A stretch of DNA of 64,000 bases from Vampirovibrionales bacterium (GCA_029866025.1 JARXAD010000002.1:49688-113687); one strand, 5' to 3'; positions 2,409 to 63,526 are shown, numbered from the stretch's first letter. The notes: generated by a model not told the origin, from the letters alone. Program-made: numbers and translations.

Positions 2409-2535
2409 TTAAACAGACCTTAGTATCCTTACAATTCCCTGCAACCCAAAACATGTTCGACACATGACACATTACTATAAGTGCAGTAGGAAGATCTATG
2501 ATTCACCTGTATCATAGGACAGGATCTAGGGGGTG

Positions 2536-2607
2536 TGGGCCCAGATGGATTCGAACCATCAACCAAGGGATTATGAGTCCCCTGCTCCACCATTGAGCTA
2601 TAGGCCC
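2536..2607 (-). tRNA. tRNA-Met/Ile2 (anticodon CAT), elongator-type. It has a G1-C72 pair and no encoded CCA.
   Basis: Reverse-complement folds as GGGCCTA / GCTC..GAGC / GGGGA-CTCATAA-TCCCT / GATGG-TTCGAAT-CCATC / TGGGCCC-A. The T-loop GTTCGAATC is canonical. Confidence 0.85.
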
Positions 2608-2831: not shown

Positions 2832-3018
2832 TAATACATACGCTTTTAGAAATACTCTTGCAAGAAGAATAAATCAATTATAACAAAAACATTCACCGCT
2901 GCTATAAAGCGGCAGCGGCCGTACAAAGCGTTCTAGGGCGGGGTTTTTTGTGATAAGGTACTCCTTAGTCGTTTTGACGGATCTCGGTGAATACTCTAGT
3001 TTCTGAAAGTTGTTTTGA

Positions 3019-5511
<2,493 letters not shown>

Positions 5512-10065: not shown

Positions 10066-11037
10066 ATGTGTTTCCCTACATTTAGGATCCGTATTATGCG
10101 TATTTCTCATATGGCTACAGCTTTTTCGCCCAACTTTGGACAGCGACCAAAAACGGCCTCAAATATAGTCAATTCTACAGATCAACTATCCATTCGTTTT
10201 GGCTCTATACCTTTATCCACCTATATTAATCAGGTGCATGTTTCCATTGTAGAGGGTGATATTTCGCAGCAAAAAGTAGACGCTTGTGTGGTTCCTCAGC
10301 TACTCACCGGATTAAGGGGGGGGGGAGTCTCAGACGCGCTTTACTCTTCGGGAGCAAGAAATGGGGTAAAAGCGTATCAAAATAAAATTGAGACAGGCCA
10401 TACGATGCAATTGGGTGAAGCACTTTGTTGTGAGTCAGGTGGAGGTAATTCAAAGTACTTGATTCATATTGCCACAGGGAAAGATTATTCGGGCTCTGTC
10501 GAAGATGCTGCTTTAGCGAAGCTAAAAGCCCCTACTATTTATAAAAATCCTAATCAAACAGTGGAAAAATATGCTGATATTGCGTTTATTGCCGTTAAGG
10601 AAGGCGTGAAAAACGCACTTGTTCAGGCAGAACGTAAGGGTTTAAGCTCTGTGGCCATTCCCCATATGGCTATCTTCAATTCATTGTTAGAAGTTCAGGC
10701 AGCCGAAGCCACGTTAGGAGGCATTGAAGAATACTCCAAAACAAGTAAAAACCCAGTAACAGTGAAAATTATTGCCTATCAAGATAAAGATAACGCTACC
10801 AAAAATGCTTACCGTGATGTAATACAGACTAAATCGTATGAGAATCCCTTTTGCCCCGTGGGCCTTACCGTTGGAAATTCCTTTGCGACAATGGAGCATA
10901 GGGTTAGAGGCGATAAATTTTTACCACCCATCGCTAAAGCCTTTAAAAAATATTATGCTACAAACGAGGGCTCTACCGATCGCAAATTAAAGGAGCTTAC
11001 CTATCAAACCTTATCTCTGGAAAAGAAAATTGGCTAA
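10066..11037 (+). CDS. Macro (ADP-ribose-binding / deacetylase) domain protein with an extra C-terminal region.
   Basis: VDACVVPQ and GGGVSDALY..G reflect macrodomain-like glycine-rich loops. GC is about 42%. A G10 homopolymer sits inside the coding region. The C-terminus contains GNSFAT, shared with two other ORFs. Confidence 0.5.
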   Translation: MCFPTFRIRIMRISHMATAFSPNFGQRPKTASNIVNSTDQLSIRFGSIPLSTYINQVHVSIVEGDISQQKVDACVVPQLLTGLRGGGVSDALYSSGARNGVKAYQNKIETGHTMQLGEALCCESGGGNSKYLIHIATGKDYSGSVEDAALAKLKAPTIYKNPNQTVEKYADIAFIAVKEGVKNALVQAERKGLSSVAIPHMAIFNSLLEVQAAEATLGGIEEYSKTSKNPVTVKIIAYQDKDNATKNAYRDVIQTKSYENPFCPVGLTVGNSFATMEHRVRGDKFLPPIAKAFKKYYATNEGSTDRKLKELTYQTLSLEKKIG

Positions 11038-20832: not shown

Positions 20833-20906
20833 TGGAGGTGGCACCCAGATTCGAACTGGGGATAGGGGTTTTGCAGACCCCGGCCTTACCACTTGGCGAT
20901 GCCACC
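20833..20906 (-). tRNA. tRNA-Cys (GCA) with encoded CCA.
   Basis: Reverse-complement GGTGGCATCGCCAAGTGGTAAGGC-CGGGGTCTGCAAAACCCC-TATC-CCCAGTTCGAATCTGGG-TGCCACC-T-CCA. Anticodon loop CTGCAAA. Confidence 0.85.
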
Positions 20907-20973
20907 GAATCCTCTATTGAGACCCATTAGCATAGGTAAAACACCCGCCTCCGTCCACCAGCCCCCAAGGGGG

Positions 20974-21270
20974 CCAGCCAAAGGCTGGTTTATCTACTGA
21001 AATCAAGCGTAAACCTTTAAAGCTATTGATATTAACGCCCAATGCCACTCTATAAACCCAGCCAGCCAAAGGCTGGTTTATCTACTGAAATCAAGCGTAA
21101 GCCTTTAAAGCTATTGATATTAACGCCCAATGCCACTCTATAAACCCAGCCAGCCAAAGGCTGGTTTATCTACTGAAATCAAGCGTAAGCCTTTAAAGCT
21201 ATTGATATTAAACCCCCAATGCCACTCTATAAACCCAGCCAGCCTAAAGGCTGGTTTATAGACTGGTCTT
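20974..21270 (+). repeat. 3.3 tandem copies of an 88-bp unit, each with a 6-bp hairpin (CCAGCC aaa GGCTGG) plus U-rich tail and a promoter-like TTGATA-N19-TATAAA.
   Basis: Unit starts at 20974, 21062, 21150 and 21238 (degenerate). Copies differ by 1-2 SNPs. Confidence 0.85.
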
Positions 21271-21313
21271 TGGCGTAAGCATTGATAATTTTCGGGATTT
21301 ACGCCAAAGACCA
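21264..21313 (+). promoter_or_regulatory. Perfect 15-bp inverted repeat (TGGTCTTTGGCGTAA ... TTACGCCAAAGACCA) with a 20-nt loop. It is followed by a second small hairpin ACCCGCC-TT-GGCGGGT.
   Basis: Read directly. It lies 80 bp upstream of the SPFH gene start. Confidence 0.5.
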
Positions 21314-21394
21314 CTATAAAAACCCGCCTTGGCGGGTGCTTTGTGGGTATGATGCTAAGTAGTAGACACCGTACGTTGTTGGAGACACACCGCC

Positions 21395-34602: not shown

Positions 34603-35046
34603 ATGTCCGTTGCCTTTGGTCACACTGCCCCCCCCCACGCGTTAGCCCCAAAATTTGGCGCTTTGCTTCTTGCTGCTTCAAACCCAACGCTAAATCAAAA
34701 AGCTGTTAAAGGTCAGCAGTTTGAATTTGATGAGTTAGAAACACACTTGGCTAACGTGCCAAAGACGGATAGTTTTATAGTTGAGTGCGGCAACGACCGC
34801 AATCCCAATAATTACCGGATTCATATTTATTCATTCCCACTAAAACACCTTGAGAAGAAAGAGGGTTCCGAAGCAATTACTAAAAAGTTTCCACCGTCTG
34901 TTTGGTACAATTGGCAAAAGACGGTGATTGTACCCGCAGCAGAATTACTGACAAAGAAAACCAAAGACGCACTTACTGCAATTTTAACCAAAATGGCTAG
35001 CTTGCAATACACGGTTGATGACCTTGATGAAATCACATTAACCTAA
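34603..35046 (+). CDS. Hypothetical 147-aa protein, AT-rich, with a C9 tract in codons 9-12.
   Basis: ORF only; no motif recognised. Confidence 0.35.
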   Translation: MSVAFGHTAPPHALAPKFGALLLAASNPTLNQKAVKGQQFEFDELETHLANVPKTDSFIVECGNDRNPNNYRIHIYSFPLKHLEKKEGSEAITKKFPPSVWYNWQKTVIVPAAELLTKKTKDALTAILTKMASLQYTVDDLDEITLT

Positions 35047-47242: not shown

Positions 47243-47923
47243 CTAGTCAACAACTTGCCTTTCAGAGACATAGCCTTCAGGCAAATTGTTTAAATCCAAC
47301 TCGTTTTTTTGGATATACAACAGTTTTTCTGGTCCCCAATAAAGGTTTCCCTTTTCTTTAATTTTAAAATAACTTTCATTTTTGCTTATTCCGTTAAGAG
47401 CAGGGACAAAGAGAAAATCGTTGGTTGAAGGACAGCCTCTCCCATTAAGATCACAAGCATCTTTATGAGCATCTATCATAGAAAACATTTCTTCTAATAA
47501 TGCTCGGTTGGTAGTTAATGTTAATATACCGGAATGATTATTTTTATGTTCTAGAAGAATTTTATAATAGCCACTACTGGAAGCAGCGGCCTTTTCATCA
47601 TCATAAAATCTATGAAGCAAACTTCCTTGAGGCGAAGAGGTATAGATTACATGTGTGTACTTCCCACTCTCAGAGGTATTTTTTACAGAGCTGGCTTGGC
47701 TAACCTTTTGGCACGCATAACCAAAGGTTTTACACAGGCCCTCTAACCATTGGTTCACATTCGGTTCGGTATCATTATTTTGTTGGGCAAATGTATCCGT
47801 GTCAAAGTCAAAGGCCTCATTTGTCGGGCGAAAGCCTAACAGTTGCTGAAAACCACGAAATTCATCCCCCCCCCCCCGATTGGCTGGAGCAATGTGATAC
47901 TGGGTGCCAAATTGAATGTTCAT
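47243..47923 (-). CDS. Hypothetical 226-aa protein, AT-rich, with a G12 tract in codons 16-20.
   Basis: ORF only. The GGDEF-like string is the translation of the homopolymer, not a cyclase motif. Confidence 0.35.
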   Translation of the reverse strand: MNIQFGTQYHIAPANRGGGDEFRGFQQLLGFRPTNEAFDFDTDTFAQQNNDTEPNVNQWLEGLCKTFGYACQKVSQASSVKNTSESGKYTHVIYTSSPQGSLLHRFYDDEKAAASSSGYYKILLEHKNNHSGILTLTTNRALLEEMFSMIDAHKDACDLNGRGCPSTNDFLFVPALNGISKNESYFKIKEKGNLYWGPEKLLYIQKNELDLNNLPEGYVSERQVVD

Positions 47924-54298: not shown

Positions 54299-54850
54299 TT
54301 AAGGCACGGACGCCACAGGCAATGTGCACAGTCCACCTTGATAGTGCTCTTTCAACAACGTTTCTACGGCAGGGGGAACGGCTTTACTAATGTCCCCACC
54401 ATACCGGGCGACTTCTTTTACCACCGACGACGAGAGGAACTGATGCTCCAGACTGGCCATCATAAACAGGGTTTCCACGCAGGGATTGAGGGTTTTATTC
54501 ATCTGAGACATTTTAAACTCAAATTCAAAATCAGAGACTGCCCGAAGGCCGCGCACAATCACCTCTGCCCCAGCAGCTGCGGCAAAATCAATGGTTAGGC
54601 CTTCAAAGGGTTGAACGGTCACGTTGGTAATAGGTCTTTCACTTTGCTGAATACAGGTTTGGATGAGCTGAACACGTTGCTGAAGGGTGAGTAAGGGCGC
54701 CTTGTTGGGATTACGGACTACTGCCACCACCAACTGATCAAACAAATGGCTAGCCCGCGTCACAATATCCAAGTGGCCGCGAGTCATGGGGTCAAAACTA
54801 CCGGGATACACGGCGGTTACCACGTTTAAACGTCCTTTAGCGGTTACCAC
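54299..54850 (-). CDS. coaD: Phosphopantetheine adenylyltransferase.
   Basis: VYPGSFDPMTRGHLDIV (the T/HxGH motif). Core is about 160 aa; the start may be downstream of the track start. Confidence 0.85.
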   Translation of the reverse strand: MVTAKGRLNVVTAVYPGSFDPMTRGHLDIVTRASHLFDQLVVAVVRNPNKAPLLTLQQRVQLIQTCIQQSERPITNVTVQPFEGLTIDFAAAAGAEVIVRGLRAVSDFEFEFKMSQMNKTLNPCVETLFMMASLEHQFLSSSVVKEVARYGGDISKAVPPAVETLLKEHYQGGLCTLPVASVP

Positions 54851-55196
54851 ACACCGTTAAAACAAGGGCCCTCGTCACATTTCGTCACGATTTTCCTCCG
54901 CACTCTGGCAAAGTAATCAACAAACCATTGACCATACAAACCAATGAGCACAGGCGCTTGTTCAACACGTTTAGTCTACCCCAGTTTGCTCTGTTTCCCG
55001 TCACCCCTCCACACCCAAACCGAGGAATCGTTAAAAAACGTTACACCCCACCCCCCGCAAGCTGGGTTTTTAAATTTGCTTTGCTAAGCCTTTGGGCAGA
55101 GCGTGGCAAACCCTACCCTAACAACCAAAAGCCCCATTACTTTTAAAGTAATGGGGCTTTACGCTTTATTGATGAACTACAATTCTTTGGAATGAA

Positions 55197-55655
55197 TTAT
55201 TTTCCTTCAGAGCCGTTAGTAGCGTCTAGATCTTTATCAGGCGCTGTTTCTTCAAGCTCCCCAACAGGGCTGACCATATTTTTTTCCACTAGTTGCCCGT
55301 GGAGGTCTTTAACGAGGTCTGTTAAAGTACGAACAAGTTGTTTTAAACCATACGAAGCGTTTGGTTCTTCAGCTCTCTGTGCAGTATGCTCTTTGTTTAG
55401 TGCAGGGTGTTCCAGATCGTGAATCAATACCTTTGCCTTCACACCTGCCTCTCCGCTCGGGGTTGAATACGGCTTGGCCTTTATGCTTACTATCCCTGAG
55501 TAGTCTTTGACTTGGTCTGCTAGCGTCCGTAAAGCCTCTTCTATATTGTAAATTTTATCACCTGAAGTTTTCCCAATTTTATATGTGATTCTTTCCTCTT
55601 CTATATCGCGGTGTACTAACGAAGTAAACTGGATTGGATTGGATTGGATTGTCAC
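55197..55655 (-). CDS. Hypothetical 152-aa protein, AT-rich, with an (AATCC)4 pentanucleotide repeat in codons 2-8.
   Basis: ORF from GTG 55655, with GGAG 7 nt upstream. The repeat on the plus strand is ggatt x4 at 55631..55650. Confidence 0.35.
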   Translation of the reverse strand: MTIQSNPIQFTSLVHRDIEEERITYKIGKTSGDKIYNIEEALRTLADQVKDYSGIVSIKAKPYSTPSGEAGVKAKVLIHDLEHPALNKEHTAQRAEEPNASYGLKQLVRTLTDLVKDLHGQLVEKNMVSPVGELEETAPDKDLDATNGSEGK

Positions 55656-55800
55656 GAGTGCATCTCCGTGCGTGTAGGGGGCATCAAATACGCCCCAAAT
55701 GCTTGAAGCGTTACTTCCTTAAAAGCCCCTAAGACATTACTTGTGCTAGTCGGGCGCACAATGATTACAAAACCGTTACAAACGCGACTGTCCAAAGACT

Positions 55801-56484
55801 TTATAAAGCGCCCTGATACGCCCACAACTGCCCCAAGGTTAAAATGCTGGGCTCTTGCTCTGCCAAGCGTTTAAGCAGCACCCACAAGGTATCGGCCGTC
55901 ATTTTCACATCGTACTCAGCCCGGTGGGGGTTGGCATTGTACACGCCACAGGCATGGGCCACGGCCACCCCTTCGTAGGTAGGTAAGCCTGGCAACAGTT
56001 TTTTAGCCAAAGCACGGGTACACAAGCTCTTGGCAAAATCCACACGGGGCTGGTAGCCTTGCAAGCCCGTTTCTTCCAGCTTGGCTTGTAAAAAACCAAT
56101 ATCAAAGCTTACGTTGTGGCCCACAATCAAAGGCTCTGGGCCCAATAGCTGGCATAAGTCTCGCAGTACTACTACTGGGGCTGGGGCATTGGCCACCATG
56201 GCATCCGTAATACCCGTAATGGCCACAATATTCTCTGGAATCGACTCGGTAGGCTTGACCAGGGTTGAAATGCGGTTCAGTTCTTCCCCCCGCTGAAACT
56301 GAATGGCCACCAATTCGGTAATGGCATTTTTTTTGGCTTGCAAACCCGTGGTTTCCAAATCCAGCACCGTAAAAATGGCATCGGCAATCAAGGTATCTGC
56401 CATCATGGGCGGCAGCGGCGCTTTAAATGCCGTGGTGTCGGTATTGGGTGATTCTAACAACGCCCCAAACAGTGATTGCTGCAT
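55801..56484 (-). CDS. DEDDh 3'-5' exonuclease (DnaQ/DNA polymerase III epsilon-like).
   Basis: Exo I VLDLETTGL, Exo II GHNVSFDIGFL and Exo III HRAEYDVKMTADTL. Confidence 0.75.
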   Translation of the reverse strand: MQQSLFGALLESPNTDTTAFKAPLPPMMADTLIADAIFTVLDLETTGLQAKKNAITELVAIQFQRGEELNRISTLVKPTESIPENIVAITGITDAMVANAPAPVVVLRDLCQLLGPEPLIVGHNVSFDIGFLQAKLEETGLQGYQPRVDFAKSLCTRALAKKLLPGLPTYEGVAVAHACGVYNANPHRAEYDVKMTADTLWVLLKRLAEQEPSILTLGQLWAYQGAL

Positions 56485-56556: not shown

Positions 56557-57486
56557 CTACGTTGCAAAAGCTCCAAACCATTCGCTTCTTAGCGTCTTTA
56601 GGCCCAAAAGCTTCATTGCTTTGTTTAAGGCTTTGGCTACTCTATTCGCCCAGCGATTGGCCCCTGCGGCAGGGGCATCAATCCAAGGGCCTTTTTGGTT
56701 TTTCGTGGGTTTTGCCAAGTCATCTTGGGTTGAAAATGCCAAGTAGTAGCAATCGTGCCCGGTTGGGATATTAAGGTAGGCATTGCGAGCGTCCGGATCA
56801 TCGGGCTTAGCACCCTTGCCAAAAACGCCTATTTTTAGTGTTTGCCAGCAAGTGCGGTTAAACTCCTTAAAAAGAAACGTTTTATAACCCGGCGTGTTAT
56901 TAGGCTTTCCTAATGCGTCTGTTACCGTGATTAAAGGCTCACCATTTTTATTTTCGCCGATGGCTTTAATTAACTCAAAATGATACTGAGTTCGAGCCCG
57001 ATGCATGACAACAATCACGTGCCCTAAGGCTAAATGCCTTCTAACATCGTCCACACTGCCGTGGTTATAGGCTTGGGCATACAGCCCCTGACGTCTAGCC
57101 TCATCCAGCATTAACTGTGGCGTTAAACCCAAATTTTTCCAACGGCGTATGTGATGGTCCAAGTCATTGCTACTTTGAGGAGGAGTTTGAGATTTCAACG
57201 CATTTAATACCATGGCCAAAGCCCTTGTGCCACAAGAAGAGCTGCCGGCAGGTTGATCTAAGGGCGTTAATAGGTGCTTTGTCTCCGTTTTTTTAATATA
57301 CGTAGAATCCTTAGCCTCCAACAACGTGGCTTGATGATGGCTAAAATACCCAAAATACACACCGTTACTTGGCACAAGTAACGTTTCCTTTATACCCAAC
57401 AAGCACGCACGTTGATGCACCCAATGCGGAGGTTGTTCCGACGGGTAAAATGAACGCTGCAAAGAGTTTGTCGTCAGCTGCACCAT
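56557..57486 (-). CDS. Papain-fold cysteine peptidase-like protein (C39-like).
   Basis: SSCGTRALAMVLNAL resembles the C39 catalytic Cys region (CG.A.LAM.L). The downstream His candidate is GHVIVVMH. Confidence 0.35.
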   Translation of the reverse strand: MVQLTTNSLQRSFYPSEQPPHWVHQRACLLGIKETLLVPSNGVYFGYFSHHQATLLEAKDSTYIKKTETKHLLTPLDQPAGSSSCGTRALAMVLNALKSQTPPQSSNDLDHHIRRWKNLGLTPQLMLDEARRQGLYAQAYNHGSVDDVRRHLALGHVIVVMHRARTQYHFELIKAIGENKNGEPLITVTDALGKPNNTPGYKTFLFKEFNRTCWQTLKIGVFGKGAKPDDPDARNAYLNIPTGHDCYYLAFSTQDDLAKPTKNQKGPWIDAPAAGANRWANRVAKALNKAMKLLGLKTLRSEWFGAFAT

Positions 57487-63026: not shown

Positions 63027-63135
63027 TAATTAAACGTGATAATATAAAAACATTTTATTGGATTCTTCTGCTAATTTGTTACAGCATGTAACTAGCCCTT
63101 GCAAATTACAGGCGCAACTCTGGTATGCTACGCCT

Positions 63136-63519
63136 TGCCAGGCAGATGGTTGCGCTGGTGTGTGTTGGTAACAGCACCCACTGGTGAGGAAAGTCCGGGC
63201 TCCGTAGGGCAGGTTGCCGGGTAACGCCCGGTGTGAGTAATCACGAGGACAGTGCCACAGAAATGAAAACCGCCGATGGACCCTCCTTAAGTTCACTTAA
63301 GAGTCGTCACAGGTAAGGATGCAACGGTGGGGTAAGAGCCCACCAGCAAGGCCGAAAGACCTTGGCTAGGTAAACCCCAACCGTGGAGCAAGGTGAAGAG
63401 CAACGATTCAATTCGTCAGGGCTGCCCGTCCGCTTTTCGTAATCCGCACCGAGCGGGTGATGTGAATCCCCGCCCAGATAGATAACCATCCAACGACAGA
63501 ACCCGGCTTATCGCCTGGC
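63136..63519 (+). ncRNA. rnpB: RNase P RNA, bacterial type A.
   Basis: GGAAAGTCCGGGCTCC (P4 5' strand), ACAGAAA, GGTAAGAGCCCACCAG and ACAGAACCCGGCTTA (P4 3' strand). P1 pairs GCCAGGC with GCCTGGC. Confidence 0.85.
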
Positions 63520-63526
63520 CCCTCCC

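Follow-up and report, generated by a model that had tools for sequence, protein, structure and literature searches.

The sequence under study, a 64,000-nucleotide stretch of DNA from a Vampirovibrionales bacterium, is referred to throughout as the window. The minus strand carries, in this order, ilvC, a gene for a 309-amino-acid protein that is weakly C39-peptidase-like, a DnaQ-like exonuclease gene (RNase_T; 55801-56484; protein MDH4378735.1 of the source MAG), a 152-amino-acid orphan ORF that we call ORF152 (55197-55655), coaD, a gene for a 273-amino-acid coiled-coil protein, and minC. ORF152 starts with GTG, and the identical 152-amino-acid protein is called in the NCBI annotation of the source MAG, as hypothetical protein QE263_02355 of 'Vampirovibrionales bacterium'. 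A Shine-Dalgarno sequence, GGAG (55664-55667, minus strand), precedes the GTG by 8 nt. A 145-nt leader (55656-55800, minus strand) separates the ORF152 start from the exonuclease stop and has a hairpin, GGGGC-N9-GCCCC, at 55678-55696. A sigma-70 consensus promoter was not found in this leader. Downstream, 37 nt past the ORF152 stop, a terminator-like perfect hairpin of 15-16 bp with a T-rich tail (55128-55160, minus strand) ends what is a one-gene unit.

Two of the surrounding genes deserve brief comment in their own right. The 309-amino-acid protein, encoded upstream of the exonuclease at 56557-57486 (minus strand), resembles Peptidase_C39 and phytochelatin synthase (papain-like fold) only weakly and below threshold, and 59-66% identity is kept in genus-level relatives. 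The two candidate GTG start codons of coaD, 27 nt apart, each coincide with a copy of an 11-nt direct repeat, GCGGTTACCAC (GTGGTAACCGC on the coding strand; window 54813-54850). Translation of coaD probably begins at the downstream codon, at 54823.

The feature of interest is at the very beginning of ORF152. On the minus strand, positions 55631-55650 read AATCCAATCCAATCCAATCC. They belong to a perfect pentanucleotide repeat, (AATCC)4.4, that occupies 55630-55651, equivalent to nucleotides 5-26 of ORF152 (Tandem Repeats Finder: period 5, 4.4 copies, 100% matches). The 5' end of the ORF is GTG ACA ATC CAA TCC AAT CCA ATC CAG, or MTIQSNPIQ. Hence, the protein begins MTIQSNPIQF and the residues encoded by the repeat are IQSNPIQ. 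In a regex census of all 64 kb, this was the sole pentanucleotide SSR of at least 3 units, and no tetra-, hexa-, or heptanucleotide SSRs of at least 3 units were present. The (AATCC)4 pattern arose in 0 of 100 dinucleotide-preserving shuffles of the window, even with 2 mismatches allowed. The GC content of ORF152 is 43.1%, compared with 49.8% for the window, and its GC3 is 37%, compared with 53.5% for the window's long genes. A preliminary description of this DNA had placed four AATCC units in codons 2-8 of an AT-rich ORF. The sequence read, Tandem Repeats Finder, and the shuffles bear out the repeat, and the base composition bears out the description of the ORF; the position is essentially right, the tract being codons 2-9. 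An uninterrupted tandem repeat with a unit length that is not a multiple of three is the structure seen at contingency loci.

The same description had noted that the true start might be downstream of the repeat. Our analysis does not favour this, and we take GTG at 55655 as the ORF152 start. It is the only usable start codon: it has the GGAG Shine-Dalgarno sequence, the start codon of a related locus (L085, below) aligns with it, and canonical in-frame starts do not recur until codon 72. Upstream, the nearest in-frame stop codon is 21 codons off. Nor is there a start upstream of the tract that rescues the other frames. An ATG at 55663-55661 meets TGA before the tract, and the third frame is startless. 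The tract lies after the functional start and ahead of the predicted fold (residue 21 on), which is the position expected of a contingency locus.

We determined the consequences of unit changes in silico. With 1, 4, or 7 units, full-length products of 147, 152, and 157 amino acids result. With 2, 5, or 8 units there are only 9, 14, and 19 amino acids, and with 3 or 6 units 23 and 28. With its present 4 units, the gene is ON. Adding or removing one unit leaves a peptide of 14 or 23 amino acids in place of the full-length product, which returns with further changes. Hence, the switch design is real, with ON in one frame of three and no second start. Note that mRNA folding with 2-6 units showed no unit-dependent change in accessibility of the Shine-Dalgarno sequence or start codon. 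We conclude that the locus is a credible candidate contingency locus. Our preferred interpretation, which we hold tentatively, is that slippage in the tract switches a dispensable accessory gene ON and OFF by frameshift, and that the gene is now ON.

The predicted protein offers few functional clues. It is hydrophilic (GRAVY -0.61), with a maximum 19-residue Kyte-Doolittle hydropathy of 0.14, and has no Cys, no Trp, no TM segment, and no signal peptide. No family was matched in Pfam, PHROG, PADLOC, or NCBIfam. A word-indexed search of 5.8 billion clustered proteins found no homologue beside ORF152 itself. Similarly, there were no relatives in phage or plasmid records (tblastn), nor in viral or metagenome contigs. 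A full HMMER search of 1.8 billion cluster representatives returned ORF152 and one extra match, P0002 (E = 5e-5). This is a 2628-amino-acid HYR-repeat protein, matched seven times over approximately 40 residues across domain junctions. We judged it a spurious homologue, since the score is summed over repeats, the matches span junctions, and the conserved cysteines are missing from the match. The AF2 model of ORF152, made from the single sequence, has a beta-alpha-beta-beta-alpha core at residues 21-124. Residues 1-18, which include those encoded by the repeat, are predicted to be disordered (pLDDT <50). Foldseek comparison of the model with the PDB gave nothing at E <=0.001. The matches obtained were generic, ferredoxin-like or PII-like beta-alpha-beta arrangements with E >=0.01, and we dropped any fold assignment.

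The number of units, four, is borderline for high mutability. In Haemophilus influenzae, the threshold for pentanucleotide SSRs is 3 units (PMC2651432), and '3+ GACGA' has been put in the hypermutable class, with 1e-5 to 1e-2 changes per division, by a review (PMC4235727). Conversely, PhasomeIt needs at least 5 units for pentanucleotide repeats, while stressing that mutability is a continuum (PMC6321876). (AATCC)4 passes the first threshold and fails the second; hence the borderline status. The H. influenzae hsdM (GACGA)n tract described by Zaleski et al. 2005 is like that of ORF152 in being a coding pentanucleotide repeat of approximately 4 units in which a one-unit change truncates the product (summarised in PMC2651432 and PMC4235727). 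The measured switching of hsdM (GACGA)4 is reported to be high, with rates comparable with those of much longer tetranucleotide tracts (PMC2651432). Unlike ORF152, an orphan from an uncultured Vampirovibrionales bacterium, hsdM is a type I restriction-modification (R-M) methylase gene with a phage-resistance phenotype and documented strain polymorphism. A second coding pentanucleotide repeat, CACAG, is found in a type III R-M gene of Mannheimia (Pasteurella) haemolytica and was proposed to modulate expression (Ryan & Lo 1999, cited in PMC6321876). It differs from ORF152 in belonging to an R-M system, in having many more units, and in coming from a host-adapted pathogen. The contingency-locus design proposed in the preliminary description is upheld in part: its geometry, meaning the sole usable start and the frame effects, holds, as does the accessory, AT-rich nature of the gene. 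A tract of four units, under the PhasomeIt cut-off, counts against it.

Neisseria opa genes provide a further comparison. These have (CTCTT)n in the signal-peptide coding region, right after the start, and undergo frameshift-mediated ON/OFF translational switching. The tracts are approximately 7-28 units long, in a multigene family of outer-membrane adhesins with a hydrophobic signal peptide. ORF152 shares with opa a pentanucleotide repeat immediately past the start codon. However, opa tracts are much longer, and ORF152 has neither paralogues nor a signal peptide. Because of the latter, the ORF152 tract is not an opa-type leader-peptide repeat.

Four other long SSRs, all G/C homopolymers, are present in the window, and all four are within ORFs and in frame. 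A C11 tract (3038-3048) occupies codons 7-10 of gyrB (3019-5511, plus strand), where it encodes TPPPS ahead of the conserved N-terminal arm. In ORF 10066-11037 (plus strand; AT-rich, GC3 0.36), a G10 tract (10316-10325) specifies the Gly-Gly-Gly-Val motif conserved in a macro domain; all three glycines use GGG codons. A C9 tract (34628-34636) forms codons 9-12 of an orphan ORF at 34603-35046 (plus strand; GC3 0.41). Finally, a C12 tract (47866-47877), which is G12 on the coding strand, forms codons 16-19 of an orphan ORF at 47243-47923 (minus strand; GC3 0.35). Counting the pentanucleotide tract, four of five long SSRs are in the first 20 codons of an ORF, although the first 60 nt of ORFs make up only approximately 5% of the window (binomial P ~4e-5). 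Three of these ORFs, namely ORF152 and those with C9 and G12, are AT-rich orphans. The C9 and G12 ORFs have no Pfam family and good Shine-Dalgarno sequences ahead of them, and a 1-nt change either way truncates them to 13-35 amino acids. On these sequence features, both are candidates for phase variation as good as the pentanucleotide locus, or better.

The lengths of homopolymers in the window are unusual. There are 62, 16, and 2 C runs at lengths 5, 6, and 7, and then runs of 9, 11, and 12. For G and C together, the distribution is bimodal, falling to 6-7 and followed by outliers of 9, 10, 11, and 12. A/T runs stop at 8, whereas Markov models expect approximately 4-5 runs of at least 9. The pattern points to expansion of, or selection for, G/C tracts specifically, with long A/T runs being avoided.

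Two of the G/C tracts caution against reading too much into position. The identity of gyrB is clear from matches to Pfam DNA_gyraseB, Toprim, and HATPase_c. Solved GyrB chains align from residue 17 on, and the stretch from C11 to the conserved region lacks a start codon. With C10 or C13 in place of C11, translation from a TTG at 3015, which is in the -1 frame and has the same GAAAG Shine-Dalgarno-like motif ahead of it, would yield full-length gyrB; TGA at 3032-3034 blocks the third frame. Having two starts may thus protect this essential gene when slippage goes one way. Neither C11, in gyrB, nor G10, in a conserved macro motif, can be a contingency switch. It follows that, in this genome, a tract near a start codon is insufficient evidence for contingency by itself. 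The preliminary description had taken the G/C tracts as support for phase variation. This holds for C9 and G12, in AT-rich orphan ORFs, and for the 5' bias, but not for C11 in gyrB or G10 in the macro domain.

Longer repeats and RNA genes were also seen in the window. A tRNA-Met gene (2535-2607, minus strand) is overlapped by a tandem repeat of 112 bp, present in 2.3 copies, with partial tRNA copies (region 2535-2831). Adjoining this repeat is a very AT-rich AAA_15/AbiEii-like ATPase gene (672-2408; GC3 0.29). The region looks like the edge of a tRNA-integrated element, possibly with a defence gene. A tRNA-Cys gene (20833-20906, minus strand) is followed by an 88-bp tandem repeat in 3.2 copies (97% matches) at 20973-21259 (region 20833-21320), the units of which contain the palindrome GCCAGCCAAAGGCTGG. 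The RNA of a bacterial class A RNase P is encoded at 63134-63526 on the plus strand (228 bits).

Comparison with relatives shows that ORF152 occupies a hypervariable slot, which runs from the DnaQ-like exonuclease to the region upstream of coaD (55081-55800, minus strand). The loci compared were L085:902-1500, L086:1143-1460, L084:3119-3220, and L083:6694-6990. The slot content is absent, or the slot is empty, in L001, L083, L084, and L086. The more distant L001 and L083, with exonucleases 58% and 72% identical, keep the gene order exonuclease, coaD, 273-amino-acid protein, minC, with approximately 300 bp between exonuclease and coaD, and without the ORF. Six short metagenomic contigs are from genus-level relatives, their exonucleases being 90-92% identical in protein and 77-82% in DNA. 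Among the contigs, the interval is 'empty' in L086 and L084. L081 agrees with L086 over its extent, ending 48 bp past the exonuclease stop. In L085, which is identical to L088 and overlaps L082, the slot contains an unrelated 129-amino-acid orphan ORF. L087 carries the leader, and the contig stops short of the start codon. The L085, L087, and L082 lineages were represented in samples JGI 3300043504, ERZ28593844, ERR4869734, and SRR27422806. Hence, the slot has at least three states among related species. Since it is empty or otherwise filled in relatives, and ORF152 is lineage-specific and AT-rich, describing ORF152 as acquired or accessory is reasonable.

Two further ideas about the slot were considered and dropped. 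An 11-nt inverted repeat that flanks the unit (55181-55191 and 55791-55801) is, by our estimate, at chance level for a 1-kb region. An integron-type gene cassette does not fit either, since no recombinase was seen among the adjacent genes scanned (exonuclease, C39-like, coaD, coiled-coil) and the hairpin is a perfect terminator-like stem.

The 5' part of the slot in L085 is the most informative comparison. The leader is 72% identical to that of the window (z = 24.7), whereas synonymous sites in the adjacent exonuclease are only 58% identical. The Shine-Dalgarno sequence and start position match, CAAGGAATTACACGGATG being aligned against CACGGAGATGCACTCGTG, with AGGA and ATG in L085 at the positions of GGAG and GTG. 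Past the start, in the same place as the window tract, L085 has a degenerate stretch with 5-nt periodicity, ACTC AATTC AATTC GGTTC. The ATG linked to the Shine-Dalgarno sequence opens a frame of only 10 codons (MNTQFNSVRM*), and the long ORF is in the -1 frame. Deleting one AATTC unit would fuse the two, the offset being exactly one unit. The gene caller chose an upstream TTG, inside the leader hairpin, as the start in L085. Judged by sequence, this arrangement could be the OFF state of the ORF152 design; equally, it could reflect a different start or a decaying gene. Note that we also aligned the sequence past the tract to see whether the window has exactly two units more than L085 (PIQFTSLV against SIQFGSDV). 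The best offset, 10 nt, gave 12 of 24 matches and was not significant (shuffle P 0.32), and this was dropped.

These observations can be combined in a simple scheme. Slippage would have produced the tract, a microsatellite still prone to it, in the opening codons of an accessory gene that is real and lineage-specific. By analogy with H. influenzae hsdM (GACGA)4, replication strand slippage may alter the number of units at well above the base-substitution rate. If so, populations would hold OFF variants able to revert. Logically, expansion from one 5-mer to four by slippage, in steps of 5 nt, passes through 2 and then 3 units, neither of which is in frame. Hence, the gene was very probably once off and later on again, and for this history ORF152 would have to be dispensable. 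The periodic stretch at the same place in L085, with an ATG one unit out of frame, supports the switch. Several observations count against it. The product has no family, signal peptide, or TM segment, unlike typical contingency genes. The repeat encodes part of the tail predicted to be disordered, which would tolerate 15 nt inserted in frame. The nearest relatives are only approximately 80% identical in DNA. No second sequence of ORF152 from the same species was found in the proteins, metagenome or viral contigs, phages, and plasmids searched, and copy-number variants (1-7 units, exact-flank pattern) had no match in metagenome contigs.

The best-surviving alternative is that slippage produced an incidental microsatellite in a disordered N-terminal tail that is under little constraint, the orphan gene being one that evolves fast. 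The tract would be mutable but neither maintained by selection nor regulatory. The in-frame state would then amount to an insertion of 15 nt, or five extra residues (SNPIQ), that is merely tolerated. We regard this as possible, if on the doubtful side. A model for it is the (CTGG)3 repeat of E. coli lacI, which Farabaugh et al. are said to have identified as a frameshift hotspot in 1978. Like the ORF152 tract, this is a short, perfect, non-triplet coding repeat subject to one-unit slippage. Unlike the ORF152 tract, it is inside a conserved housekeeping regulator rather than at the 5' end of an accessory gene, and it is not considered adaptive. The low predicted confidence of residues 1-18 and the small number of units fit an incidental origin, as do the long tracts that encode Pro or Gly runs in gyrB and the conserved macro motif. 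Typical contingency loci are surface or R-M genes, and the family and signal searches give the ORF152 product no such contingency-type function. The degenerate tract of L085 similarly suggests decay rather than maintenance. However, neutral tracts decay, whereas the window tract is perfect over 22 nt. The concentration of long SSRs in first codons, with three of them in AT-rich orphan ORFs, also argues against accident, and a stepwise path to four units requires OFF intermediates and then a return to ON.

A second alternative is that ORF152 is not a gene. The exonuclease-coaD spacer would then be non-coding, or specify an RNA, with a frame open by chance and a repeat that is a neutral intergenic microsatellite. 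The failure to find a credible homologue anywhere searched, or a family in any of the four collections, is as this predicts. Codon usage is also equivocal. Against codon frequencies taken from the long genes of the window, the sense frame of ORF152 has a value of -0.02, inside the range of shadow ORFs; host genes have a mean of 0.33 (SD 0.13) and open shadow ORFs a mean of -0.05. This absolute score is low, and many shadow ORFs equal or exceed it, so codon usage alone shows only that the ORF is atypical. However, the other five frames score far lower, between -0.36 and -0.95. GC1 is 0.57, far above GC2 at 0.35. The Shine-Dalgarno sequence, start codon, and terminator frame ORF152 exactly, and the first two are conserved in position in L085, the unrelated slot ORF of which scores 0.23 in its own frame. 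The AF2 model of ORF152 has a mean pLDDT of 63, a pTM of 0.52, and 70 residues at 70-90, well above a 149-amino-acid shadow-ORF control from the same window (pLDDT 35, pTM 0.25, zero residues >50). Rfam searches of the region gave only chance-level matches, at the terminator hairpin, and no family at a meaningful score, and the reading of the spacer as a non-coding RNA was rejected on this basis. We conclude that ORF152 is very likely a real gene, and that its being none is improbable.

In a third account, the leader, Shine-Dalgarno sequence, start codon, and 5-nt stretch are a fixed expression module, and recombination at or beside the repeat has attached unrelated ORFs to it. On this view, the repeat is no switch but was left behind by the exchange, or served as its substrate. 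Homology between the window and L085 does have a striking outline. It runs from the exonuclease through the leader and start into the tract, falls to random, and resumes at the 3' arm of the terminator hairpin (GGGGCTTTTGGTT, common to both), and again in the coaD upstream region, at approximately window position 55081. The 5' boundary of the variable part of the slot coincides with the repeat. Between these points, ORF152 and the 129-codon ORF of L085 have no detectable similarity in DNA (z = 0.4) or protein, and both are singletons. However, only two filled alleles are known, there is no recombinase or integrase among the adjacent genes scanned, and no copy of the pentanucleotide unit marks the 3' boundary of the slot. 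In addition, ordinary homologous recombination in the conserved flanks would produce this pattern too. We consider this account unlikely.

It is similarly a long shot that all of these elements belong together, with exonuclease-coaD a dedicated one-gene slot of the genus in which the leader, Shine-Dalgarno sequence, start, and 5-nt tract are fused to unrelated orphans from one species to another, the tract being both capture joint and ON/OFF switch, and part of a wider SSR phasome that includes gyrB, buffered by two starts in different frames, in a non-pathogenic, predatory or uncultured lineage.

To our knowledge, nearly all SSR contingency loci have been described in host-adapted pathogens, for example Haemophilus, Neisseria, Campylobacter, and Helicobacter. 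In the literature searched, no paper linked phase variation to Vampirovibrionales or Melainabacteria. The exonuclease-coaD slot is small and well bounded, making it a convenient test site. Should there be no switching, the locus would serve as a caution that a textbook-looking design can come from slippage in a tolerant N-terminal tail. If the switch described here is real, a known mechanism would be extended to a new lineage and lifestyle. Furthermore, if all three orphan ORFs switch, the non-photosynthetic sister lineage of the cyanobacteria would be using localized hypermutation on its accessory genes, for example in interactions with prey or phages.
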